A stretch of DNA of 64,000 bases from Anaerolineales bacterium (lineage in GTDB: Bacteria > Chloroflexota > Anaerolineae > Anaerolineales > Villigracilaceae). The stretch lies in contig DATDCZ010000029.1 in assembly GCA_036524055.1 (NCBI GenBank), forward strand, positions 1,042 to 65,041, read 5' to 3'. Of the stretch, positions 2,112 to 35,887 are shown piece after piece. The position numbers and the translations under genes were made by a program. The notes below the pieces were generated by a model, which did no database searches, was not told where the DNA came from, and saw only the letters and a list, made by a program, of their open reading frames with translations. Each line of letters starts with the position of its first letter. The first letter of the stretch is position 1.

Positions 2112-2906
2112 TCAGGCATTCAGACGATTGACGAGCTCAGGAAGTAGGCCGAGGTGGCCGATCTCGAAGTAGCCATGGTTCGGCGCATCGACGTGTTCGT
2201 GAGACCAGGTGTGCTCATAGGGCACAAAGACTGCGCGGCCGTCAATTTCGATCACAGGCAGGATGTCCGACTTCAGTGAATTCCCGACCATGATGAACTT
2301 GTCGATCGGAATGCCATGCCGCTGCAAGAGCGAACGGTAGCTCTCCGCGGTCTTATCCTGAATGATCTCTACGTATTTGAAGAGGGGTGTCAGGCCGGAC
2401 CGCTTGAGCTTCTCACTCTGCTCCAGCAGGTCGCCTTTGGTGATCAGCATGAGGTCGTGGTCGCGCGCGAGAGCAGTCAGGGCGGAGGCGGCGTGCTCAA
2501 AGAGCATCACATCGGCGGCCAGCATGTCGCGTCCCAACTGCAATATGGAATCGATCACGGCGCCGCTAACCTTGCCGCCCGTGATAGCCACGGCAGCCTC
2601 GATCATGGACAGCGTGTAGCTTTTGATGCCATAGCCGTACCAGCCGATATTGCGCACCTCGATCTCTCCGAGGGCCTTCTCGATCGCATCCGGTCCGGCA
2701 AAGTCCTGCAGGAGCTGCTTGAACGCGCCTCCCGCCCGCTGATAGTGGGTCTCGTTGTGCCACAGTGTGTCGTCAGCATCGAAAGCGATGAAGAGTCGCC
2801 GTGCGGTTGGTAGCTGGGTGCCGGAAGGTGTTGTCACAGCGTGGTCTTCTCCCCGATCTGACGAACTGGCATTCGGTTTTTGAGACCGGTATGGAGATAC
2901 TGACAT
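2112..2906 (-). CDS. HAD-superfamily hydrolase
   Basis: DxDxT motif in FIAFDADDTLW, later ITKGD and VGNSLKSD motifs typical of HAD motifs III/IV. Confidence 0.75.
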   Translation of the reverse strand: MSVSPYRSQKPNASSSDRGEDHAVTTPSGTQLPTARRLFIAFDADDTLWHNETHYQRAGGAFKQLLQDFAGPDAIEKALGEIEVRNIGWYGYGIKSYTLSMIEAAVAITGGKVSGAVIDSILQLGRDMLAADVMLFEHAASALTALARDHDLMLITKGDLLEQSEKLKRSGLTPLFKYVEIIQDKTAESYRSLLQRHGIPIDKFIMVGNSLKSDILPVIEIDGRAVFVPYEHTWSHEHVDAPNHGYFEIGHLGLLPELVNRLNA

Positions 2907-3125
2907 TCAGATTATCGCACGGGCCCGGTCGGATTTCAATAGCGTGCCCGATCTTCATACCGTGACACATACTCGCGCCGTGCAGCGCATGCCTCCGTCC
3001 CGGAATGGCCCGAAATCTGGTGACGTTTGTCCATTAGGTGAGTCGACTTGGGACCGTATCATGTTAGAATGCGCATCCGACGTGCGGCGGCTACACTTGG
3101 CAACATACCTCTGGAGCGGCCTTCC

Positions 3126-3845
3126 ATGAAGTTAAGCGGCGCATCGTCCGCAGAGGTACTCGAATTCCTGCGCGTCGTCCCCCTATTCTCGAAGATCAAT
3201 GGCTCCACGGCCAGAAACCTGGCCACCCAGTGCCACTTTCGCCATTTCGACAAGGGCGAACGGATCTTCCACGAATCCGACATGGCCGAGTGCGCCTTCC
3301 TGGTGCGTTCCGGGAAGATCTCCATCATCCTTAACAGCACCGATGGCCGTGAGCTGGTTATCGACGAAATGCGCCCCGGCGACATTCTGGGGGAGGTCGG
3401 TCTCTTAACTCGGACAAGCCACACCGCCAGCGCCGTTGCGCGTACACATTGCGAAGTTCTCGCTCTTCCCCGCGAGCTTTTCCTCCGCATGATCGATGAC
3501 GAGCCGGTCCTTGCACGCCGGATTCTGGATGTCACGGCCCATCGCCTGCAGCGGAGCGCCGTCCGCGAGACCGCCCTGGCATTCCTGGACGCCCAGGCCC
3601 GCCTCGCCCGCTACCTCCTTGCCTTGGAGGCCGAAGAGCATGACAAGGGCTATGTGACCGCCTCGCAGGAGGATCTGGCTCGGGGAACGGGCCTCATTCG
3701 CCAAACGGTCGCCAAGGTGCTGGGCAGGTGGCGTCGCGACGGCTGGCTTCTGACGGGCAGGGGAAGGGTTCTGCTCCTCAACCGTAAGGCTTTGGAGCAG
3801 ATCGAGAGAGGCGATATTTCGGTCTCGCTTGTGTCGCCGAGGTGA
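3126..3845 (+). CDS. Crp/Fnr-family transcriptional regulator (cNMP-binding domain + C-terminal HTH)
   Basis: VPLFSKINGSTARNLA...FDKGERIF.E.D...FLVRSGKISI is a cNMP-binding beta-roll. C-terminal ASQEDLARGTGLIRQTVAKVL is an HTH. ATG 3126 chosen over TTG 3048 because family members start about 10-15 aa before the VPLF motif. Confidence 0.85.
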   Translation: MKLSGASSAEVLEFLRVVPLFSKINGSTARNLATQCHFRHFDKGERIFHESDMAECAFLVRSGKISIILNSTDGRELVIDEMRPGDILGEVGLLTRTSHTASAVARTHCEVLALPRELFLRMIDDEPVLARRILDVTAHRLQRSAVRETALAFLDAQARLARYLLALEAEEHDKGYVTASQEDLARGTGLIRQTVAKVLGRWRRDGWLLTGRGRVLLLNRKALEQIERGDISVSLVSPR

Positions 3846-3916
3846 CAGACAGCCGGCGAACACTGACCTATACTGCGGGTAACGTTGAGACCGGAATGAC
3901 CAAAAAGGAGCCCGCA

Positions 3917-4903
3917 ATGAAGGTCGCGAAGAAGGTCCTGAAGAAGCTCTCCGCAGTTCGGGCCGTCCTGCCCAACGACGAGCGCGAAGTTCTCGACGCT
4001 ATCGTCCTTGGGGAGGTTCACGCCCACAAGTTCGGCAAGGTCGGTAAAGCGGGAAAAGCCAGCAAGGCTGGCAAAACCCAGGTCAAGGCGCACAAATTCG
4101 GCAAGTCCGTCGGCAAAGCCGCGAAGGCAGGCGGCAAGACACAGGTGAGGGCACACATGTTTGGTAAGGTCGGCAAGGTTGGGAAGGCCGCCAAGGCGGA
4201 TAAGACCCAGGTCAAGGCTCACATGTTCGGCAAGGTCGGCAAGGTTGGCAAGGCCGCCAAGGCGGATAAGACCCAGGTCAAGGCTCACATGTTCGGCAAG
4301 GTCGGCAAGGTTGGCAAAGCCGCCAAGGCGGACAAAACCCAAGTGAAGGCCCACAAGTTTGGCAAAGTTGGTAAGGTCGGCAAGGCTGACAAGACCGCCA
4401 AGCAGGTGAAGGCTCACAAGTTTGGCAAGGTCGGCAAGATCGGAAAAGCCGATAAGACCGCCAAGCAGGTGAAGGCTCACAAGTTTGGCAAGGTTGGCAA
4501 GGTCGGCAAGGCTGACAAGACCGCCAAGCAGGTGAAGGCTCACAAGTTTGGCAAAGTCGGCAAGGTCGGCAAGGCCGACAAGACCGCCAAGCAGGTGAAT
4601 GCTCACAAGTTTGGCAAGGTCAGCAAAGCCGGCAAGGCTGGTAAAGCCGGCAAGCAGGTCAAGGCCCACAAGGTTGGCAAGGTTGGTAAGGTCGGCAAGG
4701 TTGGTAAGGCCGGCAAGCAGGTCAAGGCCCACAAGCTGGGCAAGGTTGGGAAAGTTGGTAAGGTTGGCAAGGCTGGCAAGCAGGTCAACGCACACAAACT
4801 GGCCAAGACTAACCAGGCTCCGGCCAAGCTGATCCCTGCCACAACACTCCCTCCGATCGAGTTCGATCCGAATTCTGAGGAGTATCACCCGGTCCAGCAA
4901 TAA
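3917..4903 (+). CDS. Polycationic tandem-repeat protein: 34-aa N-terminal region, 12 x 21/22-aa Lys-rich units (consensus KAH[KM]FGKVGKVGKA(A)K(A)DKT(A)(K)QV), 38-aa Pro-rich/acidic tail
   Basis: ATG 3917 is preceded by AGGAG at 7-nt spacing. The repeat period is kept in frame (63 or 66 bp) over 768 bp, and wobble-position differences between units preserve the peptide. No family recognised. Confidence 0.7.
   Translation: MKVAKKVLKKLSAVRAVLPNDEREVLDAIVLGEVHAHKFGKVGKAGKASKAGKTQVKAHKFGKSVGKAAKAGGKTQVRAHMFGKVGKVGKAAKADKTQVKAHMFGKVGKVGKAAKADKTQVKAHMFGKVGKVGKAAKADKTQVKAHKFGKVGKVGKADKTAKQVKAHKFGKVGKIGKADKTAKQVKAHKFGKVGKVGKADKTAKQVKAHKFGKVGKVGKADKTAKQVNAHKFGKVSKAGKAGKAGKQVKAHKVGKVGKVGKVGKAGKQVKAHKLGKVGKVGKVGKAGKQVNAHKLAKTNQAPAKLIPATTLPPIEFDPNSEEYHPVQQ
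4019..4786 (+). repeat. 12 tandem in-frame DNA repeats (five 66-bp units and seven 63-bp units) inside the Lys-rich ORF
   Basis: Direct reading: units 4 and 5 (about 4204-4335) are almost identical at the DNA level, and units 6-9 (about 4336-4587) are near-identical 63-mers. A degenerate 13th unit starts at 4787. Confidence 0.9.
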
Positions 4904-4995
4904 CCTCTTAGCTCCCGGCAGTAGCGAACCTGGACCCTGCCGGAGGGGCACGGAGACTCCAGGACCTCAAAGCAAAATCAGACCTTCGAACGGGC

Positions 4996-5044
4996 AAACG
5001 TGGATTTTCTGCGGACAAGATTGATGCAGAGAATCCACGTTTTA
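4996..5044 (+). terminator. Rho-independent terminator-like hairpin after the repeat-protein gene
   Basis: AAACGTGGATTTTCTGC-loop-GCAGAGAATCCACGTTT forms a stem of about 17 bp followed by a T-run (cgTTTTatc). Confidence 0.65.
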
Positions 5045-5070
5045 TCTTATACTCGGGCAGGGTGGGCTAT

Positions 5071-5859
5071 ATGGACTCAGACCAGATTGCTCGTGAAGAA
5101 AAGCTCTCGGAGCAACTCAAGCGGCTGATCGTTTCGATCGGTGCCGGCGGACAGACCGTCCTTTTGGGCTCAAGCGACGAGCTGCTGAATTCCATCGTGG
5201 TGGCCGCCGCACGCATATTTGGCGCCGGTGCCGCCTCGATCCTGCTCGTCAATGAGGACGAGCAGGTTCTCGAATTCAAGGTCGCCTACGGCCCGGCCGG
5301 AAAGAAGCTGGTCGGAACCAAGTATCCGCTCGACAAAGGCATCGCCGGCTACGTCGTGATGACCGGCCAGCCCATCGCTACCTCCCAGGTCAGCAAGGAC
5401 GCGCGCTGGGACAAGGAATTCGCCCAGAGCACGGGGTATGTCCCGGAATCGATCCTTGCCACGCCGCTGCTTTCCGGGGACCGCATCATCGGCGTCATGG
5501 AAGTCCTCGACAAGATCAATGCAGCATCCTTCGGCATCCAGGACATGGAACTTCTGGGCATGTTCGCACGGCAGGCCGCCCTGGCAATTGATCAGGCTCA
5601 GCAGCTCAGCAAGATCGAAGGGGCGCTCGTCTTGGGGTTGAAGCGACTCGCGACCGCCGATCCATCCAAGGATTCCTCGGAGATCCTTTCCGTGCTTGAG
5701 ACAGCCAGGAATGACCAGGGCGAGATTTCTGATCTACTGGAGATCGCGCGCCTGCTGGGGGATATCAGTGCGTTGGGCGAGGCCGAACGTCGCGCCTGCC
5801 TGCAGATTCTGGAGGTCTTCGCCAGCCTCAAACGCTCCGCGCCGCGCAGGTTCGGGTAA
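5071..5859 (+). CDS. GAF domain-containing protein with helical C-terminal extension
   Basis: GAF-like core: SILLVNEDEQVLEFKVAYG...GIAGYVVMTGQPI...ILATPLLSGDRIIGVMEVLDK. No output domain seen. Alternative GTG start at 5062. Confidence 0.8.
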   Translation: MDSDQIAREEKLSEQLKRLIVSIGAGGQTVLLGSSDELLNSIVVAAARIFGAGAASILLVNEDEQVLEFKVAYGPAGKKLVGTKYPLDKGIAGYVVMTGQPIATSQVSKDARWDKEFAQSTGYVPESILATPLLSGDRIIGVMEVLDKINAASFGIQDMELLGMFARQAALAIDQAQQLSKIEGALVLGLKRLATADPSKDSSEILSVLETARNDQGEISDLLEIARLLGDISALGEAERRACLQILEVFASLKRSAPRRFG

Positions 5860-5862
5860 GGT

Positions 5863-6711
5863 ATGTCCGCAGAAGAAGAGGAACTGCGCCCCGCGTGGTC
5901 TCAAAGCTTCACGCCGGAGGCCATTCAGCAACTCAACGCTGTTGGCCCGTTCTCCGACATCACGCCCGCCTGGGCCTGGGGTCGTAGCAAAGGTAAGGGC
6001 ATACGTGTGGCAGTGGTCGACAGCGGTGTTGAGCATGACCATCCGGCTGTCGGCAAGAGTGTGAAGGGCGGAGTGATTGTGGAATACGACTCCCGCGCGA
6101 AAGATTCTTACCGCATCCGCCCGGACGATGAACCCATGGATGTCTCCGGCCACGGGACGGCCTGCGCCGGGATCATCCACGCGCTCGCCCCGGAGGCCGA
6201 GATCTACAGTGTAAGGGTGCTCGGCCGCAATATGGCCGGTCGTGCCATTCAGTTTGCCGCCGGGCTGGATTGGGCCATTGAACATGACATGCACGTGGTC
6301 AATCTCAGCTTGAGCACATCTCTGGAGGAATTCTTCGGGATCTTTCATGACCTCGCCGACCAGGCATACTTCAAGAACATGAATCTGGTTTCGGCGGTCA
6401 ACAACATACCTGAGCCGAGCTTCCCATCGCTCTATTCGTCCGTGATCTCCGTGGCCGCCCATGATGGGCATGATCCGTTCACCTACTATTACAATCCCAA
6501 GCCGCCGGTTGAATTCGGCGCGCCGGGGATCGACGTGGAAGTGGCCTGGAACCAAAAGCAGTACCTCGTGTGCACGGGTAACAGCTTCGCTGCTCCTCAC
6601 ATCGCTGGCATCACAACCCTGATTCGTTCCAAACACCCTGATCTGACGCCCTTTCAAGTCAAGACGGTCCTGATGGCTTGCGCGGCCAATATGCGCCATC
6701 GGGCAAACTAG
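5863..6711 (+). CDS. S8 (subtilisin-like) serine peptidase, small, no signal peptide
   Basis: Catalytic triad motifs in order: VAVVDSGV (Asp), SGHGTACAGII (His), GNSFAAPHIAGI (Ser). The N-terminus is acidic and not hydrophobic. Starts 3 nt after the GAF gene stop. Confidence 0.85.
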   Translation: MSAEEEELRPAWSQSFTPEAIQQLNAVGPFSDITPAWAWGRSKGKGIRVAVVDSGVEHDHPAVGKSVKGGVIVEYDSRAKDSYRIRPDDEPMDVSGHGTACAGIIHALAPEAEIYSVRVLGRNMAGRAIQFAAGLDWAIEHDMHVVNLSLSTSLEEFFGIFHDLADQAYFKNMNLVSAVNNIPEPSFPSLYSSVISVAAHDGHDPFTYYYNPKPPVEFGAPGIDVEVAWNQKQYLVCTGNSFAAPHIAGITTLIRSKHPDLTPFQVKTVLMACAANMRHRAN

Positions 6712-6730
6712 ATCAACAGAGAGGAAACAC

Positions 6731-8500
6731 ATGGGGCAATTCGATAAACCATCCGGATGGTCTCTTGCAGATTTGTTGCCGGCGCCAGTCGAGAAATCGC
6801 TGGAGGAAACCCTGGCCCAGCTGGAGCGGACGGTCTCCGGGTTTGAGGCCATGCGCGAACGGCTGACAGAGACTGTCGCAATTGACGATTTCAACAAGGC
6901 GCTCGCGGCGCTGGAAAAGATCTCCACCATCAAGAGCAAGATCGAGGCATATGCGGATCTTGCTTTCTCCGAAAACACACAGAGTCCCGAGGCGCTCAAT
7001 TTGCGGGACCGCGTCGATCAGGTCCTGACCGATATCGGCAACCGTTGCCTCTTCTTCGAGCTTTGGTTCAAGGCGCTTCCGGATGAGGCCGCCAATCGCC
7101 TGATCTCCAAAACCGGTGATCAGCGATATTTCTTGGAGACCATGCGGCGTTTCAAGCCGTTCACTCTGACCGAGCCCGAAGAGAAGGCCATCAACATCAA
7201 GGATGTCAATGGCATCGACGCCATCGTCAACTTGTACGAGATGATCACCAACGGCTTCGAGTTCGAGCTGGAGGTGGATGGCGAGAAGAAGACGCTCACG
7301 CGCGACGAGCTGGCAAGTTACTACCAGAATCCTTCACCGGATTTGCGCGCCGCCGCGTACCAGGAGCTGTTTCGGGTATTCGGCGAGAATTCCACGGTGC
7401 TGGCCCAGATGTACATCCACCGGGCGCGCGACTGGCACGCCGAGGGAGTGGAGTTGCGGGGCTTCCCGTCCCCGGTATTCGCACGCAACCTGGAAAATGA
7501 TCTCCCCGAAGCGGTTGTGAATACGCTGTTGTCCGTCTGCCGGAAGAATGCCAGCTTGTTTCAGAAGTACTTCAAGCTGAAGGCCAAGTGGCTGGGGCTC
7601 GACAAGCTGCGGCGGTATGACGTTTACGCGCCCCTGGCTCCTTCCGACAAGAAATTCGCGTATGCTGAGGCCACCCAAATGGTGATGGACAGCTATACGG
7701 CCTTTTCGTCCGACGTGGCGGCGCTTGCCAGGCGCGTGTTCGATGACGACCATCTGGACTCTGAAGTTCGTGCCGGCAAACGCGGCGGCGCTTTTTGTTA
7801 CACCGTGTCCCCGGAGCTCACGCCCTGGGTTATGGTCAACTACAACCAGCAGGCCCGCGACATCGCCACGCTGGCACACGAACTGGGGCATGCGATCCAT
7901 TCGATGCTTGCCAGTCGCCATTCCATACTGACCCAGCTGCCTTCCCTGCCGTTGGCCGAAACGGCCTCAGTGTTCGGCGAGATGCTGCTGACCGACCGAT
8001 TGCTGAAGCAGGAGCAGGACCCGCGCGTCCGGCGAGAGCTTCTGGCGAACGCCCTGGACGACGCCTATATCACGGTCATGCGCCAGGCCTACTTCACCAT
8101 CTTCGAGAAGGACGCCCATGACATGATCGCCGACGGCAAGACGATAGACGAGTTGGCCGACCACTACCTGGCAAATCTCAGGGAACAGTTCAGTGATGCC
8201 GTGGATGTCAGCGAGGACTTCAAGTGGGAGTGGGTCAGCGTGCCTCACATGATCCAGTGGCCCTTCTATACCTATGCCTATAGCTTCGGCCAATTGCTGG
8301 TCCTTGCGCTGTATCAACAGTACCGGCTCGAGGGCGATGCCTTCCTACCCAGGTATCTGCGCATCCTCTCGCACGGTGGCTCAACGCCGCCGCTGAAGGT
8401 GCTCACGGAGGCCGGCCTCGACGTCACGCAGGCCGCCTTCTGGCAGGGTGGCTTCGATTTCCTCGCGAAAATGCTGGCCGAACTCGAGCAATTGTCTTAA
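6731..8500 (+). CDS. pepF: M3-family oligoendopeptidase (PepF-like)
   Basis: 589 aa with zinc motif HELGHAIH and downstream E in AETASVFGE; length typical of the M3B family. Confidence 0.85.
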   Translation: MGQFDKPSGWSLADLLPAPVEKSLEETLAQLERTVSGFEAMRERLTETVAIDDFNKALAALEKISTIKSKIEAYADLAFSENTQSPEALNLRDRVDQVLTDIGNRCLFFELWFKALPDEAANRLISKTGDQRYFLETMRRFKPFTLTEPEEKAINIKDVNGIDAIVNLYEMITNGFEFELEVDGEKKTLTRDELASYYQNPSPDLRAAAYQELFRVFGENSTVLAQMYIHRARDWHAEGVELRGFPSPVFARNLENDLPEAVVNTLLSVCRKNASLFQKYFKLKAKWLGLDKLRRYDVYAPLAPSDKKFAYAEATQMVMDSYTAFSSDVAALARRVFDDDHLDSEVRAGKRGGAFCYTVSPELTPWVMVNYNQQARDIATLAHELGHAIHSMLASRHSILTQLPSLPLAETASVFGEMLLTDRLLKQEQDPRVRRELLANALDDAYITVMRQAYFTIFEKDAHDMIADGKTIDELADHYLANLREQFSDAVDVSEDFKWEWVSVPHMIQWPFYTYAYSFGQLLVLALYQQYRLEGDAFLPRYLRILSHGGSTPPLKVLTEAGLDVTQAAFWQGGFDFLAKMLAELEQLS

Positions 8501-8512
8501 GGAGCGTTGGGC

Positions 8513-10297
8513 ATGGCTGAAACCGCTAAAGCTTCCACCTCACCATTCTCGGTCTTCCGCAATCGCAATTTCTCACTGATGTGGTCGGGCCAACTGGTTT
8601 CGACCATGGGCTCTGCCTTGACGTCGCTGGCGGCCTCCATCTATGTCTTCCGGCTGACGAACTCAGCCTTGAGCGTGGGCCTGATGTTGATGGCCACGGC
8701 AGCACCCAGCCTGCTCGTCGGACTGTTCGCAGGCGTGTTCGTGGATCGCTACGACCGGAAGAAGATCATGATTATCTGCGATCTTCTCCGGGCGGTGTTG
8801 GTGTTCCTGGTCCCCTTCCTTGTAGGTCATGGCGTCGTGTGGCTGTATGTCATCGTGATGCTGACCAGCGCCATCGGTCAGTTTTTCGATCCCGCTCATG
8901 AGAGTGTGCTGCCGGAAGTTGCCTCGGATGAGGAGCTGGCTGCGGCGAACTCACTCATCGCCATCAGCTCATTTGGCTCGACGGCCATCGGCTTCGCCGC
9001 CTCAGGTTTGATCGCCGCCGCGGCGGACATCAGTTGGGCGTTCTATCTGGATGCCGTGACTTTCCTTGTTTCGGCACTTTGCATTTACTTGATTCGCATC
9101 AAGGCTTTCACGTCAGACGAGAAGACCAGCGCCTCGATTGTCATCAGCAACCTGCGCGCCGGGGTGCAGCAGCTGTTCAAGACTCCGATACTGCGATCGC
9201 TCTTCACTGCGCAGGTGCCTGTGCTGATGGCGTTCGGCCTGGTCAACGCCTTGTTGCTGCCTTTTGCCATACGCGCTCTCGGTGCGACCGAGTTTGAGTA
9301 CGGCTTGCAGGAGGGACTCACTTCCATCGGTTTCGTCATCGGCAGCCTGCTCATGGCGGGCATATTCGACCGCATGCGCGAGGGTGCGTGGATCGGCATC
9401 AGTTTCTTCGGTATGGCCATCGCCGGGATCGTGTATTCCTTCCTTCACTCCATCCCGCTCGCCATATTGGTGGTGACCATCTCGGGCTTCTTCAACGCGC
9501 CTTCCGCTATCGGGCGCAGGTTGGTGGTGCAGCGCAACACACCGCGGGAAATGCGCGGTCGGGTAAATAGTGTCTTTTTCGTGTCTCGCGACGTGCTTTT
9601 CCTGGTCGGTATGGCGGCCGCCGGGCTTGCCGATACGATTGATGTCCGCGTGATGTACCTGGCTGGCTCGCTGATCATCCTTGTCGGTGCAGTCCTGGTC
9701 ATGACGCTGCCCGGGCTGCGGCAGGAAGGGGCGGAATGGCAACAAGCGCTCGGCTTCCTGAGGGCCTCTGCAACGGCCCCGGGGCTCGGCAAAGGCCGGG
9801 CCGCTGTGCCGGCAGATGTGGATCTACTCGTGGGCCTCGTTCCAACTCTCTCGGTTCTCACGGTCAAGGAGCGCGCCAATCTCGCCCGTTCGGCCAGGGT
9901 TGTTGAAGTGCCGGCTGCCACCGCAGTCCTGCGACGTGGCGATGCAGGGGACGCGGCGTTCTTCATTCTGGAAGGCCGCGTGGCAGCCGGGCTGACGACG
10001 GCGGGAGGCGATTACAAGTCGCTTGAGTCTATGACCGTGGGAGATCTCTTCGGTGAGATCGCCGCCCTGACGGGTTCGACACGCCGGGCAGATGTGGTCG
10101 CCACTGATGCCTCGAAGCTGTTCCAGATCCCGGCAGAAACCTTGCGGGGATTAATGAGCCAGCCTGCAATGAGTGCCATGGTCCTGTCCAAGATGACCGA
10201 GCGACTTAGTATATCCAGCCAGTATGAGCTGCCGCGCTTCGCCGGAGTCGATCAACAGGCGATGCGCGAATTGCGCACCGCGCCGGCAGAGTCCTGA
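8513..10297 (+). CDS. MFS transporter fused to a C-terminal cyclic-nucleotide-binding domain
   Basis: About 400 aa of 12-helix MFS-like sequence (FVDRYDRKK loop motif), then VLRRGDAGDAAFFILEGRVA...GDLFGEIAALTGSTRRADVVA, a cNMP-binding beta-roll. ATG 8513 has AGGAG 8 nt upstream. Confidence 0.8.
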   Translation: MAETAKASTSPFSVFRNRNFSLMWSGQLVSTMGSALTSLAASIYVFRLTNSALSVGLMLMATAAPSLLVGLFAGVFVDRYDRKKIMIICDLLRAVLVFLVPFLVGHGVVWLYVIVMLTSAIGQFFDPAHESVLPEVASDEELAAANSLIAISSFGSTAIGFAASGLIAAAADISWAFYLDAVTFLVSALCIYLIRIKAFTSDEKTSASIVISNLRAGVQQLFKTPILRSLFTAQVPVLMAFGLVNALLLPFAIRALGATEFEYGLQEGLTSIGFVIGSLLMAGIFDRMREGAWIGISFFGMAIAGIVYSFLHSIPLAILVVTISGFFNAPSAIGRRLVVQRNTPREMRGRVNSVFFVSRDVLFLVGMAAAGLADTIDVRVMYLAGSLIILVGAVLVMTLPGLRQEGAEWQQALGFLRASATAPGLGKGRAAVPADVDLLVGLVPTLSVLTVKERANLARSARVVEVPAATAVLRRGDAGDAAFFILEGRVAAGLTTAGGDYKSLESMTVGDLFGEIAALTGSTRRADVVATDASKLFQIPAETLRGLMSQPAMSAMVLSKMTERLSISSQYELPRFAGVDQQAMRELRTAPAES

Positions 10298-10348
10298 GGA
10301 GTTCAGCGCAGCTCGGAGGCTGCCTCGCTTCATCGGAATAGAACTGAC

Positions 10349-10385
10349 AAGAAAGCACCCGCGCGTCGGTGGCGGGTGCTTTCTT
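10349..10385. terminator. Bidirectional terminator-like hairpin between convergent genes
   Basis: AAGAAAGCACCCGC-9 nt-GCGGGTGCTTTCTT; A-run and T-run flanks allow function on both strands. Confidence 0.65.
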
Positions 10386-10424
10386 GTAACCTGGCTTGCG
10401 GTGAGCCGGATACGGATTGCAGAC

Positions 10425-11099
10425 TCAGCTTGGCGCAGACGCGGCGCCTACCGGCTCCACGAACAACGCGGCGGCGAGATCGTATCCCAGTACGTGTTCG
10501 CGCTTGCCGTATTGGATTCGGAGCGGCCCCTTCGATGGCGCGCGATGGCGGAGTTCGAACTCAACCTGTGGGAATAGGCCAAGCTCGGCGAAGTAGCGCA
10601 GTTCATCGGGATTGTGCGTCCGTACCCGGCTGATGCGGCAGCGCGTGCCGGCCGAAAGCTGCACCAGGCTTGTATCCCTTACCTCGGGCATAACGCCCTC
10701 CTTGGATGGGATGGGTTCTCCATGCGGACACCGCGTAGGATGACCGGTGATCTCATCCAACCGGTCCTCGAGATGATCGTTGATTCCCAGCTCGAACTGA
10801 TCTGAAAGATCGTGGGCTTCGTCCCATCCGTATTTCATCACCCGGACGAGGAAAACCTCAACCAGCCGATGCCGCCGTAGCGCCGGCATCGCGATGCGCT
10901 CGCCTTCCCCGGTGAGCCGCACGCCGCGATACAGCTCGTGCTCCAGGTAGCCGAGGTCCTTCAGCCGCGCCACCATGCGCGAGGTGGCCTGCAGGGATGA
11001 GTTGACCGCCTCGGACAGCTCAGAAAGTCCGACCTTCGGCAGATCCTGTTGCAAGCGGTAGATCTCGGCGGCGTAGCGCCGCATGGCGGGGGTGGTCAT
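10425..11099 (-). CDS. DtxR/MntR-family metal-dependent transcriptional regulator with C-terminal FeoA/SH3-like domain
   Basis: N-terminal winged helix (LSEAVNSSLQATSRMVARLKDLGYL), the HRLVEVFL dimerisation helix and metal-site region HLEDRLDEITGHPTRCPHGEPIP. Confidence 0.85.
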   Translation of the reverse strand: MTTPAMRRYAAEIYRLQQDLPKVGLSELSEAVNSSLQATSRMVARLKDLGYLEHELYRGVRLTGEGERIAMPALRRHRLVEVFLVRVMKYGWDEAHDLSDQFELGINDHLEDRLDEITGHPTRCPHGEPIPSKEGVMPEVRDTSLVQLSAGTRCRISRVRTHNPDELRYFAELGLFPQVEFELRHRAPSKGPLRIQYGKREHVLGYDLAAALFVEPVGAASAPS

Positions 11100-11284: not shown

Positions 11285-12115
11285 ATGCTGGCAAGTATTC
11301 TACTGGCACTACGTGAAGGACTGGAAGCGGCGCTCATCGTCGGGATAGTCTTGGGCGCGCTTCGAAAGATGGATCGAGGCGACCTCGCTCCGGCCGTCTG
11401 GCGCGGGACGATTTCCGCGATCTTCGTGAGCCTGGCCGCGGCCATCGGGCTGACAGCACTCGGGCTGAGCCTCGAAGGGCCGGCCGAGCCGATCTTCGAG
11501 GGTGCAGCGATGCTCCTCGCGGCTGCCATCCTCACATGGATGATCTTCTGGATGAACCGTCAATCACGGTACATGAAGCAGGGCTTGGAAACTGGTGTGC
11601 GCCGCGCGGCCCTGTCGACTGGGAAGGGCGCACTGTTTGGTCTGGCTTTCCTGGCCGTGGTGCGCGAGGGCATCGAATTGGCATTGTTTCTGACGGCGGC
11701 TGCGTTTGCTTCCGGCGCGCGCGGTACGATCCTGGGCGGCTTGGTGGGTTTGGCCGCTGCCGCGTTCATTGGTTGGTCGCTTTTTGCCTCGACGATCCGG
11801 CTTGACTTGAAGCGCTTCTTCCAGGTCACGGGCGTGCTTCTTCTGTTATTTGCGGCCGGCTTGGTGGGAAACGGAGTGCATGAGTTCAATGAGGTCGGAT
11901 GGATACCCGCGCTCGTTGAGCATGTGTGGGATCTGAACCCCATACTGAGTGAAAGCTCGGGCGCGGGTGTGGCCCTCAAGGCCCTGGTTGGCTACAATGG
12001 CAACCCCAGCCTGACTGAGGTTATGGCCTACCTCGCGTACGTCGTCGGCGTCCTTCTTGCTCTGAGGCGCACTGATCGCAAGGCCGCGGCGGCCGCGGCG
12101 CAAGTCCCCGCCTAG
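11285..12115 (+). CDS. FTR1/EfeU-family high-affinity iron permease
   Basis: Two REGxE motifs (REGLEAAL, REGIELAL) in a polytopic membrane protein. Confidence 0.85.
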   Translation: MLASILLALREGLEAALIVGIVLGALRKMDRGDLAPAVWRGTISAIFVSLAAAIGLTALGLSLEGPAEPIFEGAAMLLAAAILTWMIFWMNRQSRYMKQGLETGVRRAALSTGKGALFGLAFLAVVREGIELALFLTAAAFASGARGTILGGLVGLAAAAFIGWSLFASTIRLDLKRFFQVTGVLLLLFAAGLVGNGVHEFNEVGWIPALVEHVWDLNPILSESSGAGVALKALVGYNGNPSLTEVMAYLAYVVGVLLALRRTDRKAAAAAAQVPA

Positions 12116-34210: not shown

Positions 34211-35887
34211 ATGCTCCTGACCCGAGAGCAGCTTCAGGAAAGGCTTATTGCCCTGCATCAGGCCAGTCTTGAACTGGTGCAGGAAGTATCGGTAGAGCAT
34301 CTCTTGGAGCGAATAGCCACAACCGCCTGCGAACAGGTGGGGGCGCGCTACGCCGCACTTGGCGTATTGGATGGGGCAGGGGGACTGGCCCAGTTCATCA
34401 CCGTAGGTCTGACAGACGACGCCATTAAGCGCATTGGACACACTCCAATCGGCAGGGGGCTAATTGGGGAACTCATGGATTCAAGGACCCCGATACGGGT
34501 TCCCGTAATCCTGGAGCACCCGCATTCGGTCGGGTTCCCAAAACATCATCCCGTCATGGTTTCGTTCCTCGGCGTCCCCATTCGGACGGGCGATCGCCAA
34601 TTAGGCCAAATCTATCTTACCGACAAGATCGGCGAAGCAGAGTTCACGGCGGATGATGAGCGCATCATTCAGATGTTGGCGGGTTATGCGGCCGCGGCAA
34701 TCCAGAATGCAAGGCTGCTGGAGCAAATGCAAGCTCGCGACGCCGCCCTTACCCGGCGGAACGAAGACCTTGCCCTGCTGAACGACATTGCGGGTGTGCT
34801 GACCGCCTCCCTCGAGTCTGAAGAGGTGCTGAACAAAACACTGGCCATTGTCATGAACTACATGAAGGTGGAGGCCGGCGCGATCTTTCTACTTGAGGCC
34901 GACAACCAGGTCCTGCGGATGGTGTTACATCGGGGTCAGGCCGCGGAGGCGTTCTGGACCCGAAATACGTTCCGCATCACGGATGGCTTGCTAGGTGAGG
35001 TGGCTCGCACGGGACGCACGCGCGTCAACGCGAACCCTATGCCTGAAGGGCCTTCTTTGCTGGCTGCAGTGTCAAAGGCGGGCTTCCGCCAGGTGGCCCA
35101 CCTGCCCCTTAAGTCTGGCGACCGCGTCCTGGGTGTCATGAGTGTGGCCTCTCGCAGCGTTGAACCACTAGATGCTCGTGGCTTGCAGCTCCTGGAGGCG
35201 GTGGGCAATTGGGCTGGCCTGGCGCTAGAGAACGCCCATCTGCATCAAAATGCACGCAGGCTGGCAGTCCTTGAGGAACGTGAGCGCATTGGGATGGATC
35301 TCCACGACGGCATTATTCAATCTGTCTATGGGGTGGGATTGGCGCTGGAGCACGTTGGTCTCATCATCGAGGAGGATCCTGCTGCCGCAAGGGCGCAGCT
35401 CAAGGATGCGATCGGTGGTCTGAACCATGCGATCCGGGATATTCGGGCATATATCCTGGACCTTCGGCCGCGGCAGCTGGGAAACGAGGGGTTGCTTGGA
35501 GGATTGCGCCGCCTTGCGACCGAATATCGAGCAAACACATTCTCTGATATCGAGCTGACTGGTCCCGAGAGCGGCCTGGAAGACATGCCGCAGGTGACGG
35601 CTCTGGCCCTCTTCCACATTTGCCAGGAGGCACTTGGGAACGCCGCCAAGCACGCTGTCGCAAAGCGAGTCGCGGTGCACGTGTGGCTGACCGACGAGAG
35701 AGTCTTGCTGGAAGTTCAGGATGATGGCAAGGGCTTTGCGGTGGAGAAAATGAGCTCGACCATCGGTCACGGCCTTTCCAACATGCAAACGCGCGCGCGT
35801 TCTGTGGGCGGAGATGTAGAAATCACCTCGAATCCGGGCGAAGGTACAACCGTTTTGGCTTGGGTGCCGCGTGTTTCCAAGGCATGA
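34211..35887 (+). CDS. GAF-domain sensor histidine kinase (HisKA_3 / NarL-partner type), no adjacent response regulator
   Basis: Two GAF-like regions, H-box ERIGMDLHDGIIQSVY, N-box EALGNAAKHA, G-boxes DDGKGF and GHGLSNM. Confidence 0.85.
   Translation: MLLTREQLQERLIALHQASLELVQEVSVEHLLERIATTACEQVGARYAALGVLDGAGGLAQFITVGLTDDAIKRIGHTPIGRGLIGELMDSRTPIRVPVILEHPHSVGFPKHHPVMVSFLGVPIRTGDRQLGQIYLTDKIGEAEFTADDERIIQMLAGYAAAAIQNARLLEQMQARDAALTRRNEDLALLNDIAGVLTASLESEEVLNKTLAIVMNYMKVEAGAIFLLEADNQVLRMVLHRGQAAEAFWTRNTFRITDGLLGEVARTGRTRVNANPMPEGPSLLAAVSKAGFRQVAHLPLKSGDRVLGVMSVASRSVEPLDARGLQLLEAVGNWAGLALENAHLHQNARRLAVLEERERIGMDLHDGIIQSVYGVGLALEHVGLIIEEDPAAARAQLKDAIGGLNHAIRDIRAYILDLRPRQLGNEGLLGGLRRLATEYRANTFSDIELTGPESGLEDMPQVTALALFHICQEALGNAAKHAVAKRVAVHVWLTDERVLLEVQDDGKGFAVEKMSSTIGHGLSNMQTRARSVGGDVEITSNPGEGTTVLAWVPRVSKA

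Follow-up and report, generated by a model that had tools for sequence, protein, structure and literature searches.

A stretch of 64,000 nucleotides (nt) from an Anaerolineales bacterium (contig DATDCZ010000029.1; the whole 64-kb stretch is called the window below) carries at positions 3126-10297 six open reading frames (ORFs), all on the + strand, encoding a Crp-family regulator, a tandem-repeat protein, a GAF-domain protein, a small subtilase of peptidase family S8, an M3 oligoendopeptidase, and an MFS transporter fused to a cyclic-nucleotide (cNMP)-binding domain. The repeat protein belongs to a family in which a short motif at the end of each unit is conserved and the unit bodies are hypervariable, and this motif matches the junction between subtilisin and its propeptide. 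We lean toward the reading that the repeat protein is a cNMP/Crp-induced polyprotein, cut by a GAF-partnered cytoplasmic subtilase into many lineage-specific peptides, which the M3B oligoendopeptidase would trim or degrade and the cNMP-gated MFS transporter would export. The features of the window on which this reading draws are as follows.

3126-3845, + strand: Crp/Fnr-family regulator gene, 239 amino acid residues (aa); PF00027, 86.6 bits; HTH_Crp_2 (PF13545), 52.9 bits
3829-3850, + strand: Crp-type palindromic operator (predicted), TTGTGTCGCCGAGGTGACAGAC; weight-matrix score 32.8 bits
3869-3874, + strand: -10-like hexamer TATACT from a promoter scan, 21 nt after the operator core
3905-3910, + strand: Shine-Dalgarno sequence AAGGAG read in the sequence, 6 nt before the precursor ATG
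3917-4903, + strand: repeat (precursor) ORF, 328 aa, with a 63-nt period
3917-4033, + strand: precursor leader, residues 1-39, MKVAKKVLKKLSAVRAVLPNDEREVLDAIVLGEVHAHKF, ending in the first AHx-hydrophobic site
4034-4801, + strand: tandem array of twelve units (21 or 22 aa each), GKVGKVGKADKTAKQVKAHKF-like, with QV(K/R/N)AH(K/M)(F/L/V) at the end of each
4802-4903, + strand: precursor tail of 33 aa, AKTNQAPAKLIPATTLPPIEFDPNSEEYHPVQQ, with the stop codon; the hhFDPxxEEYxx tail is conserved
4996-5043, + strand: RNA hairpin with an 18-bp stem followed by TTTTATCTT (T-run); candidate terminator or attenuator, or 3' stabilizer
5048-5053, + strand: second -10-like TATACT, just after the hairpin, corresponding to the conserved CAATATATACT of relatives
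5062-5859, + strand: GAF-domain protein, 265 aa from GTG 5062 or 262 aa from ATG 5071 (public gene calls); Pfam GAF, GAF_2, and GAF_3
5863-6711, + strand: small cytoplasmic subtilase S8, 282 aa; PF00082, 111.7 bits versus a cutoff of 21.8
6731-8500, + strand: M3B oligoendopeptidase, PepF-like, 589 aa; PF01432, 162 bits; M3_N; HELGH
8507-10297, + strand: MFS transporter, EntS/DHA3-like, with a C-terminal cNMP-binding domain; MFS_1, 123.7 bits; MFS_3, 92.8 bits; PF00027

A preliminary description of this DNA had assigned the six ORFs and their domains, and Pfam confirms all of them at the same positions, including the HELGH-bearing M3 enzyme and the C-terminal PF00027 domain of the MFS transporter. 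The twelve tandem 21/22-aa units that it had counted agree with the 63-nt period between a 39-aa leader and a 33-aa tail, and the strong hairpin with a T-run is found again as the 18-bp stem at 4996-5043 (z-score of -2.8 for the 166 nt around it). Intergenic gaps of 3, 19, and 12 nt had also been given. The gaps between GAF and S8 (3 nt) and between S8 and M3 (19 nt) are as described, while the one between M3 and MFS is 12 nt with the MFS start at ATG 8513 and 6 nt with the start at TTG 8507.

Codon-level features show that the repeat ORF is coding in the + frame. Differences between the units number 167, 44, and 34 at codon positions 3, 2, and 1, respectively (132 synonymous and 82 non-synonymous codon changes), and the GC content at third codon positions is 0.76, as in the neighboring genes. 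Relatives likewise carry AAGGAG or AGGAG at the corresponding position of their aligned upstream regions. Because the codon-position bias, the third-position GC content, and the Shine-Dalgarno sequence all mark the + frame, an antisense ORF of 433 aa that runs across the repeat on the - strand (3650-4951) was rejected as an artefact. Exact-sequence look-ups of the repeat protein with both possible starts gave no public record. In the short-read contigs that carry an identical S8 gene (L084-L086), the assembly breaks inside the repeat gene and the contigs begin in its 3' end. Many-unit precursors are under-represented in databases since short-read assemblies break within the repeat gene and public gene calls miss it.

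To describe the surroundings of the subtilase in relatives, the best 80 of 221 species-level S8 relatives were taken (one genome per species was scanned), and synteny was scored by phmmer on six-frame ORFs with the loci having enough flank as denominators. Four precursors overlooked by the automatic ORF pick upstream of GAF (L023, L050, L058, and L057) were added by hand. These 80 loci come essentially all from the Chloroflexota class Anaerolineae (Anaerolineales, Caldilineales, Ardenticatenaceae, and Promineifilaceae). Searching directly with the repeat protein had found only four true relatives. Their repeats differ, and they have in common the segments KKLSAVRAVL..EREVLDAIVLGE at the N terminus and IEFDP..EEY.P at the C terminus; in the three whose place on a contig could be established, the order is Crp, repeat gene, GAF, S8, M3, and MFS. 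The synteny in the loci is as follows.

GAF adjacent to S8: 71/73 loci
Precursor-like gene directly upstream of GAF: 58/60 loci
Crp upstream: 48/58 loci
M3 local: 17/33 loci with full flanks
MFS::cNMP local: 21/33 loci with full flanks

There is one precursor gene per locus, and the GAF-S8 block almost never occurs without it, so that the synteny of repeat-protein homologues with GAF and S8, proposed in the preliminary description as a test of a functional link, is borne out. The core of the cluster is Crp, precursor, GAF, and S8. M3 and MFS, listed there as members on a par with the others, are frequent accessories, found upstream instead of downstream in some lineages (L039, L040, and L064).

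The precursors upstream of GAF follow a constant plan, with a conserved leader (consensus ..LLKKLSALRATL...ER..LD..I), 1 to ~18 tandem units, and a conserved tail (consensus ..hhFDP..EEY..). The leader is conserved in 61 loci as judged by a leader hidden Markov model, and an exhaustive profile search gave 445 clusters at 50% identity, 219 of them with E ≤ 1e-10, among 1.84 billion representatives; one match of 807 aa (P0198) was a pentatricopeptide-like false positive. Neither the window precursor nor any of 13 diverse homologues matches a Pfam or NCBIfam model at its cutoff. Composition accounts for the matches to Scl adhesins, which are collagen-like (64 bits versus a cutoff of 325), and to LpxR, likewise below cutoff. 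Members of 65-75 aa with a single unit are common, and the unit length clusters at 21-25 aa.

Each unit closes with a motif conserved throughout the family, (D/S)-E-V-x-A-H-x-(M/L/F). Its recurrence was measured in 53 proteins by a test that assumes no motif, in comparison with composition-matched shuffles. AH recurs at least three times in 39/53 proteins, ExxxH in 35/53, VxxH in 34/53, and HxM in 26/53, against 8, 1.1, 1.5, and 0.1 in the shuffles, respectively. In contrast to the motif, the unit bodies are hypervariable between lineages, being Lys-rich, Pro/Thr-rich, acidic, Ala-rich, or Gln-rich, with a net charge per unit from +6.7 to -3. The repeats of the window contain 30% Lys and carry ~+6 per unit; the polycationic composition, on which the preliminary description had built the possibility of a reserve or nucleoid protein, is a trait of the window's lineage only. 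Two pairs of loci illustrate the pattern.

L002 versus L003: S8 93%, GAF 93%, leader 86%, tail 91%, unit bodies 44%, units within one protein 100% identical
L025 versus L034: S8 87%, GAF 85%, leader 79%, tail 52%, unit bodies 24%, units within one protein 98% identical

Overall, unit bodies are 24-44% identical between species whose S8 proteins are 87-97% identical, and units within a protein are 92-100% identical. The leader and the tail are the only conserved parts of the polypeptide besides the boundary motif. Every unit of L039 and L040 retains the motif even though units of the same protein are there down to 51% identity, indicating selection on each copy. These observations lend strong support to the idea of a multi-core precursor that the preliminary description had put forward. 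An AlphaFold2 model of a minimal homologue (mean predicted local distance difference test score, pLDDT, of 64, moderate confidence) shows a helical hairpin at residues 2-35, a disordered motif-bearing segment at residues 38-52, and a C-terminal beta-hairpin. The possibility that the leader is a cryptic I9 propeptide was rejected, as the hhalign probability is 0.4%.

Variants of the boundary motif should be mentioned. The 17 units of L034 (7846-9111) end in EVKLQSM, with Leu and Gln replacing Ala and His, and this is the only such lineage. In L030-L033, L061, and L070, the variants DETRANAM, SEVSFNAM, and DEVNAMRM are found, with Asn (Met in L070) replacing His; L030-L033 keep His at the first site after the leader and have Asn at all internal sites. 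A single-unit subgroup (P0185, P0186, P0188, and P0190) has a conserved leader and tail without a clear EVxAH (e.g., KAEMNGSSM and NPVNGHEG).

The subtilase is a member of the peptidase S8 superfamily, as shown by the PF00082 match, the D-H-S order, and the oxyanion-hole Asn. D53, H97, S241, and N181 align with D32, H64, S221, and N155 of subtilisin BPN', in agreement with the intact triad reported in the preliminary description. No signal peptide, no transmembrane (TM) or other hydrophobic segment, and no I9 propeptide are found in it, and the catalytic domain begins at about residue 43 after only a short extension. The nearest solved structures are those of subtilisin BPN', Carlsberg, and Savinase. 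It is 79-100% identical to more than 120 clusters of homologues, the named ones being "Anaerolineales bacterium," and across the whole class the protein is 62-90% identical and tracks the phylogeny like a vertically inherited gene.

The propeptides of subtilisin BPN' and subtilisin E end in ...EEDHVAHAY (1spb_P) and ...EEDHIAHEY (3whi), respectively, as read from the PDB chains. In the prosegment complex 1spb, the last four propeptide residues occupy subsites S4 to S1. Aligned in this way, the boundary motif A-H-x-(M/L/F) has the same P4-P1 pattern as the subtilisin autoprocessing junction, and cleavage is therefore predicted after the hydrophobic residue, which in the window would give twelve peptides of the GKVGKVGKADKTAKQVKAHKF type. 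The residues of the S8 cleft are nearly invariant across the family. The position lining S4 (BPN' 96) is Leu wherever the motif residue before His is Ala or Gly, and is Ile or Phe only in four lineages with Met or Leu before His. At least three correlated transitions between this position and the pre-His residue are seen on a neighbor-joining tree (Fisher's test, 8e-5, uncorrected for phylogeny), and the covariation is suggestive of the proposed cleavage register.

In the S8 of L034 (9995-10831), the cleft carries S127C, P165V, and M100V (BPN' numbering), substitutions seen nowhere else in the family; together with the motif change in the same locus, they could be read as enzyme-substrate co-evolution, though only as an anecdotal case. 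The N-terminal extension of S8 (5863-5990, residues 1-42) contains a conserved LRPAWSQxF, in which P10, A11, W12, S13, Q14, and F16 are invariant and which by eye recalls the autoinhibitory LIPY/F extension found in the intracellular subtilisins of Bacillus.

Three finer identities of the subtilase were considered and rejected. The PatA/PatG model TIGR03895 gives 19.7 bits versus a cutoff of 421.05, and no cyanobactin modification genes are found in the window or in the 80 loci, so that the PatA/PatG comparison made in the preliminary description fails as a statement of membership. The mycosin model TIGR03921 gives 123 bits versus 278.75, the protein has no hydrophobic segment, and no ESX genes lie nearby. 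The QhpE model NF049966, the second-best NCBIfam match, gives 98.3 bits versus 165 with no qhp genes; QhpE, which matures QhpC of quinohemoprotein amine dehydrogenase, is similar in being a small signal-less subtilase for one ribosomal peptide substrate.

In almost all loci, the GAF gene runs up to the S8 start or past it, the gap being usually 0-3 nt where the genes do not overlap, suggesting a stoichiometric complex of the two proteins. The 22 PDB matches of the GAF protein are nearly all cNMP-binding GAF domains of CyaB2 (1ykd), PDE2, PDE5, PDE6, and PDE10. The protein thus resembles cAMP/cGMP-binding GAF domains, and cNMP binding is predicted for it. A helical extension of ~85 aa follows at the C terminus, and a hydrophobic 19-mer at residue 44 lies inside the GAF domain. 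No signal peptide or TM segment is found in Crp, the precursor, GAF, S8, or M3; MFS alone is membrane-bound. The preliminary description had counted the GAF protein as a third sensor besides Crp and MFS. The similarity to cNMP-binding GAF domains agrees with a sensor, but the protein is more than that, being the obligate neighbor of the subtilase. It may make the activity of the protease respond to a ligand, or it may recruit the leader. The nearest functional precedent for such a partner is PopD, which associates in a complex with the subtilisin-like protease PopC of Myxococcus and controls it (PMC6434023). As side observations, ~6 kb is inserted between the GAF and S8 genes in L050 and L058 (about 3900-9960), and two tandem GAF paralogues precede S8 in L059 (403-1970).

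The regulator is a Crp/Fnr-family protein with an N-terminal cNMP-binding domain and a C-terminal Crp-type helix-turn-helix. Its orthologues retain the cAMP-contact residues G71, E72, R82, and S83 (Escherichia coli CRP numbering). In the window Crp, G71 and E72 are present, R82 is His, and S83 is Thr. At the R82 position, Arg is found in 41/49 sequences and His in the window and seven others, and nucleotide binding may be altered or lost in the window's lineage.

The operator core TGTCGC-N4-GTGACA (3832-3847) overlaps the crp stop codon (3843-3845) and is the only match in the window. The family operator is TGTC(G/A)C-N4-GTGACA, with the extended consensus TT(A/G)TGTCGCC-N-AGGTGACAGAC. In 2.3 Mb of loci searched on both strands, matches of at least 14 bits lie almost exclusively between the crp stop and the precursor start, once per locus. 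A TATA(C/T)T box is located at the same spacing in the aligned upstream regions of relatives. The 21-nt spacing to the -10-like hexamer places the operator center at about -41.5. Class II CRP-dependent promoters have a site centered at -41.5 with a 16-bp palindrome, TGTxxx-N4-xxxACA, and we infer a precursor gene promoter at 3869-3874 with class II geometry. Like such promoters, it would combine a 16-bp palindrome 21 nt upstream of a -10-like hexamer with an adjacently encoded regulator; unlike them, the half-site is TGTC(G/A)C, not TGTGA, and the window Crp has His at R82. The orthologues have a distinct recognition helix, in which R180 does not vary and Gln stands in place of E181 in 49/49 sequences, and the altered half-site fits this replacement of Glu181.

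The hairpin after the precursor gene is a recurrent element, with a z-score below -2 in 50/63 intergenic regions. Its sequence is conserved in ~30 loci (L002-L037 and L079) as GTGGATTTTCTGC...GCAGAAAATCCAC, followed by TTTT and then by CAATATATACT. RNAalifold on 29 loci gave 19 pairs, 11 of them with compensatory double changes. The single-side changes are mostly to G-U, with few A-C, pointing to an RNA structure of the + strand and not to a palindrome of the DNA. An excess of precursor mRNA over enzyme mRNA is usually obtained by placing a terminator or attenuator behind the strongly expressed structural gene. The center of the hairpin palindrome is ~41 nt upstream of the second TATACT; that this hexamer is a promoter of the GAF-S8 operon is doubtful, given the 9-18 nt to the start codon. 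No Rfam family matches the hairpin in 2900-10500 at an E-value of 1 or better. At the same place, the distant loci L047, L051, L065, L072, L078, and L083 have an unrelated TACCCGG/CTGGGTA hairpin.

The M3 enzyme belongs to the PepF family, its nearest PDB entry being the M3B oligoendopeptidase F 2qr4. Finer models remain below cutoff (TIGR02290, 536.6 versus 561.7; TIGR00181, 320 versus 490.55), and the protein is an equivalog of neither. PepF degrades a ribosomal precursor peptide in another system (PMC11218540), a precedent for an M3 step. The transporter, with ~11 hydrophobic/TM segments, is a member of the MFS, with the EntS and TIGR00900 models below cutoff; the phosphate-binding cassette of its fused cNMP domain, GEIAALTGSTRRADV, is canonical and is conserved in the orthologues. 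The number of repeats shows no clear correlation with the presence of M3 and MFS, as judged by eye.

In many relatives, the cluster is headed by four co-directional signaling genes, each present in 17-23/32 loci.

Cluster start in relatives, same strand: soluble hybrid histidine kinase with ~7 GAF domains, ~1650 aa
Cluster start in relatives, same strand: Hpt protein
Cluster start in relatives, same strand: REC-adenylate/guanylate cyclase (response-regulator cyclase)
Cluster start in relatives, same strand: cNMP-binding PP2C (SpoIIE-type) phosphatase

Examples are L029 (1-7616) and L033 (21-7528), and also L004, L022-L036, L045, L047, L056, L061, L070, and L072. All four are absent from the 64-kb window, where the sole match is a distant kinase-like ORF at 34211-35887. 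The control by cNMP suggested in the preliminary description is supported by the precursor-specific Crp operator, the likeness of the GAF protein to cNMP-binding GAFs, the intact cassette of MFS, and the cyclase of relatives.

Some observations concern the surroundings only. The contigs L015, L022, and L049, whose S8 proteins are 69-81% identical by tblastn, are filed in metagenome-assembled genomes labeled Syntrophothermus, Acidobacteriota, and Moraxellaceae; these labels are probably binning errors rather than signs of horizontal transfer. Downstream in the window lie an MntR/DtxR-type metalloregulator (10425-11099, - strand) and an EfeU/Ftr1 iron permease (11285-12115, + strand), which are not cluster members because they are not conserved beside the cluster in relatives. 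At 10350-10395 on the - strand, Rfam gives a weak match to rdlD, an antitoxin RNA (25.3 bits versus a gathering score of 50, E = 0.09), which is most likely due to chance.

In the mechanism that we lean toward, a cyclic nucleotide would be made, in many relatives by the cluster-encoded response-regulator cyclase downstream of the multi-GAF hybrid kinase and Hpt, and would activate the Crp-family regulator. Crp would bind TGTCGC-N4-GTGACA centered at ~-41.5 and turn the precursor gene on, and the RNA hairpin would terminate or attenuate transcription after this gene, so that precursor mRNA would exceed enzyme mRNA. The precursor, with a predicted helical hairpin as leader, twelve disordered units, and a beta-hairpin as tail, would be cut by the subtilase behind the hydrophobic residue at every A-H-x-(F/L/M) site; Ala would occupy S4, His would be P3, and S1 would take Phe, Leu, or Met. 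In the window, this would release the leader as a fragment of 39 aa, twelve cationic 21/22-mers (GKVGK...QVKAHKF), and the tail as a peptide of 33 aa. The GAF protein, translationally coupled to the subtilase, would be its partner and most likely make cleavage dependent on a ligand, putatively cNMP. Where present, the M3B oligoendopeptidase would trim or turn over the fragments, and the cNMP-gated MFS would export the fragments or their breakdown products. A further step, which we take only tentatively, is to regard the system as a bacterial prohormone-convertase equivalent, with a Crp-induced polyprotein and a GAF-gated subtilase, in which a rapidly diversifying, lineage-specific linear peptide exported by MFS would be a kin-specific signal from cell to cell or filament to filament, or an antagonist, feeding back via the kinase-Hpt-cyclase phosphorelay.

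Several points weigh against the processing of a polyprotein into exported peptides. M3 and MFS are not in the neighborhood in a third to half of the loci, and an MFS transporter would be an unusual exporter for peptides of 21-24 residues. The unit composition is almost unconstrained, which is unusual for antimicrobial peptides, and the units could be mere spacers. A few family members (P0185-P0190) are without a clear AH motif. The cluster has no conserved modification enzyme, immunity gene, or receptor that would hint at a function of the products. The window Crp has His for the phosphate-binding R82, which makes its ligand uncertain, and the cyclase module is absent from the window. The covariation at position 96 is uncorrected for phylogeny. 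The pockets of the subtilase were read from the sequence alignment only, the AlphaFold2 model of S8 (12-sequence alignment, mean pLDDT of 38) being left unused.

Other explanations of the same locus were weighed. The conserved ends of the precursor might act together as a regulator, tether, or inhibitor, or the tail might be the mature peptide, and the protease would then be a proteolytic switch that severs the two ends in response to cNMP, with the repeats as a linker whose extra sites merely tune the speed of severing. Members of 65-75 aa with one unit exist and have the look of a basic design (leader, one site, and tail), only the leader and the tail are conserved as polypeptide, the composition of the units is almost free, and the minimal homologue is modeled as two small structured elements around a disordered stretch. 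However, one site would suffice for severing, and yet the motif stands in every unit, both where the units of one protein have fallen to 51% identity (L039 and L040) and in lineages whose bodies are at 24%. Furthermore, the unit length clusters at 21-25 aa, the units are homogenized within each protein, and the co-located oligoendopeptidase and exporter suit peptide products. We consider this explanation possible but rather improbable. It is less probable still that the repeat protein is a multi-site pseudo-substrate or competitive inhibitor, comparable to a detached propeptide, and that the real S8 substrates are elsewhere. Points for this unlikely role are the tight linkage of the gene, with its own predicted inducible promoter, to a protease that has no I9 propeptide, the element that normally chaperones and inhibits subtilisins, and the likeness of the motif to the C-terminal residues of that element. 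The leader is not homologous to I9, however, the motif is located in a disordered region and not at the end of a folded inhibitor domain, and hypervariable unit bodies are unexpected for a tight-binding inhibitor; induction of the inhibitor by the same apparently activating signal would not be parsimonious either.

The remaining alternatives seem very improbable. The leader, multiple cores, follower, and nearby S8 protease recall a cluster for ribosomally synthesized peptides with post-translational modifications (RiPPs), cyanobactin-like with modifying enzymes elsewhere. A leader and cores are indeed present, but none of the 80 loci has a conserved modification enzyme within 10 kb, and the PatA/PatG score is far below its cutoff, as described above. 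A cNMP-based, Pycsar-like anti-phage system with a protease effector, weighed jointly with that cluster type, is hinted at by weak PADLOC matches to Pycsar components (cNMP-binding domains) and to a "subtilase" model. These are matches to generic domains only (E-values of 1e-10 to 1e-3), no Pycsar cyclase is found in the window, and the vertical, class-wide conservation of S8 (62-90%) is unlike that of a mobile defense island. Very improbable too is a Lys-rich nucleoid, polyanion-binding, or amino-acid reserve protein that neighbors the peptidases and the transporter by chance. The Lys content and charge of the window repeats superficially resemble Lys/Ala-rich histone-like tails, but orthologues at the same position are neutral, acidic (to -3 per unit), or Pro/Thr-rich, the linkage to GAF-S8 is near-universal, and conservation is confined to the leader, the tail, and the boundary motif.

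The component superfamilies of the cluster are known, whereas the precursor family, the obligate GAF-subtilase pair, the dedicated Crp operator, and the overall architecture match no curated model. No published description of the system was found in open-access papers and bioRxiv, consistent with the statement in the preliminary description that no system of this architecture was known. By analogy, the logic appears closest to multi-copy propeptide processing by subtilases, as in alpha-factor/Kex2 and the cyanobactins. The yeast alpha-factor prepro-protein is processed by Kex2, a kexin of family S8, and then by trimming peptidases, as one case of the way in which eukaryotes process multi-copy prohormones and propheromones. 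Both systems have a leader and tandem peptide copies with a short conserved motif between them, a subtilase-family cut per motif (predicted in Anaerolineae), and further peptidases. The Anaerolineae system differs in being bacterial and cytoplasmic, not secretory, in its A-H-x-hydrophobic instead of dibasic motif, in its minimal 282-aa subtilisin with a GAF partner, and in its Crp-type control; the precursors are not homologous, and in Anaerolineae the unit bodies, not just their number, differ radically between species. The cyanobactin system (PatE and PatA/PatG) likewise has a ribosomal precursor with a leader and cassettes flanked by recognition sequences, and an S8 protease in the cluster. 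The Anaerolineae cluster is without the macrocyclase/DUF domain, heterocyclase, and prenyltransferase, its recognition sequences differ, and the GAF partner and cNMP regulation are in turn absent from cyanobactin clusters.

Resemblances are also found for the protease and its site. Bacillus intracellular subtilisins share with the Anaerolineae enzyme a cytoplasmic true-subtilisin domain without a signal peptide or I9 propeptide and a short N-terminal extension; they are general dimeric proteases that carry a LIPY/F-motif extension and have neither a GAF partner nor a substrate gene dedicated to them. Compared with the I9 junction of subtilisins, the Anaerolineae motif is repeated up to ~18 times in disordered sequence, and the leader is not I9. 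In Myxococcus xanthus, the signal-peptide-less subtilisin-like protease PopC is held in check by the co-encoded, nucleotide-messenger-responsive partner PopD, and it makes the intercellular C-signal by cleaving CsgA p25 to p17 (PMC6434023). Unlike the Anaerolineae S8, PopC is a 50.8-kDa protein with an extra N-terminal part that is secreted and makes a single cut in a surface protein, with no repeat precursor, and PopD is not a GAF protein, its messenger being (p)ppGpp.

If our reading is correct, the cluster would define a ribosomal peptide-precursor family for which no model exists and a way of processing that has not been described for bacteria, namely a multi-copy polyprotein, a propeptide-less cytoplasmic subtilisin, and an obligate GAF protein. 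Such systems are systematically under-reported, with the repeat gene broken in short-read assemblies and missed by gene callers. The hypervariable units between fixed motifs would be a natural peptide library, and the pair of the enzyme and A-H-x-hydrophobic could be used to release tandem peptides. If the prohormone-like reading also holds, the products would be a new class of unmodified multi-copy bacterial signaling peptides with a new precursor family. The circuit would be compact, with a phosphorelay driving a cyclase whose cNMP would reach Crp, GAF, the gate of MFS, and PP2C, and would tie cNMP signaling directly to regulated proteolysis and peptide output. Filamentous Anaerolineae dominate anaerobic digesters, activated sludge, and sediments, and are very abundant and poorly cultured. 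The system would provide a molecular entry to cell-cell communication and development in Anaerolineae, both of which are essentially unknown.

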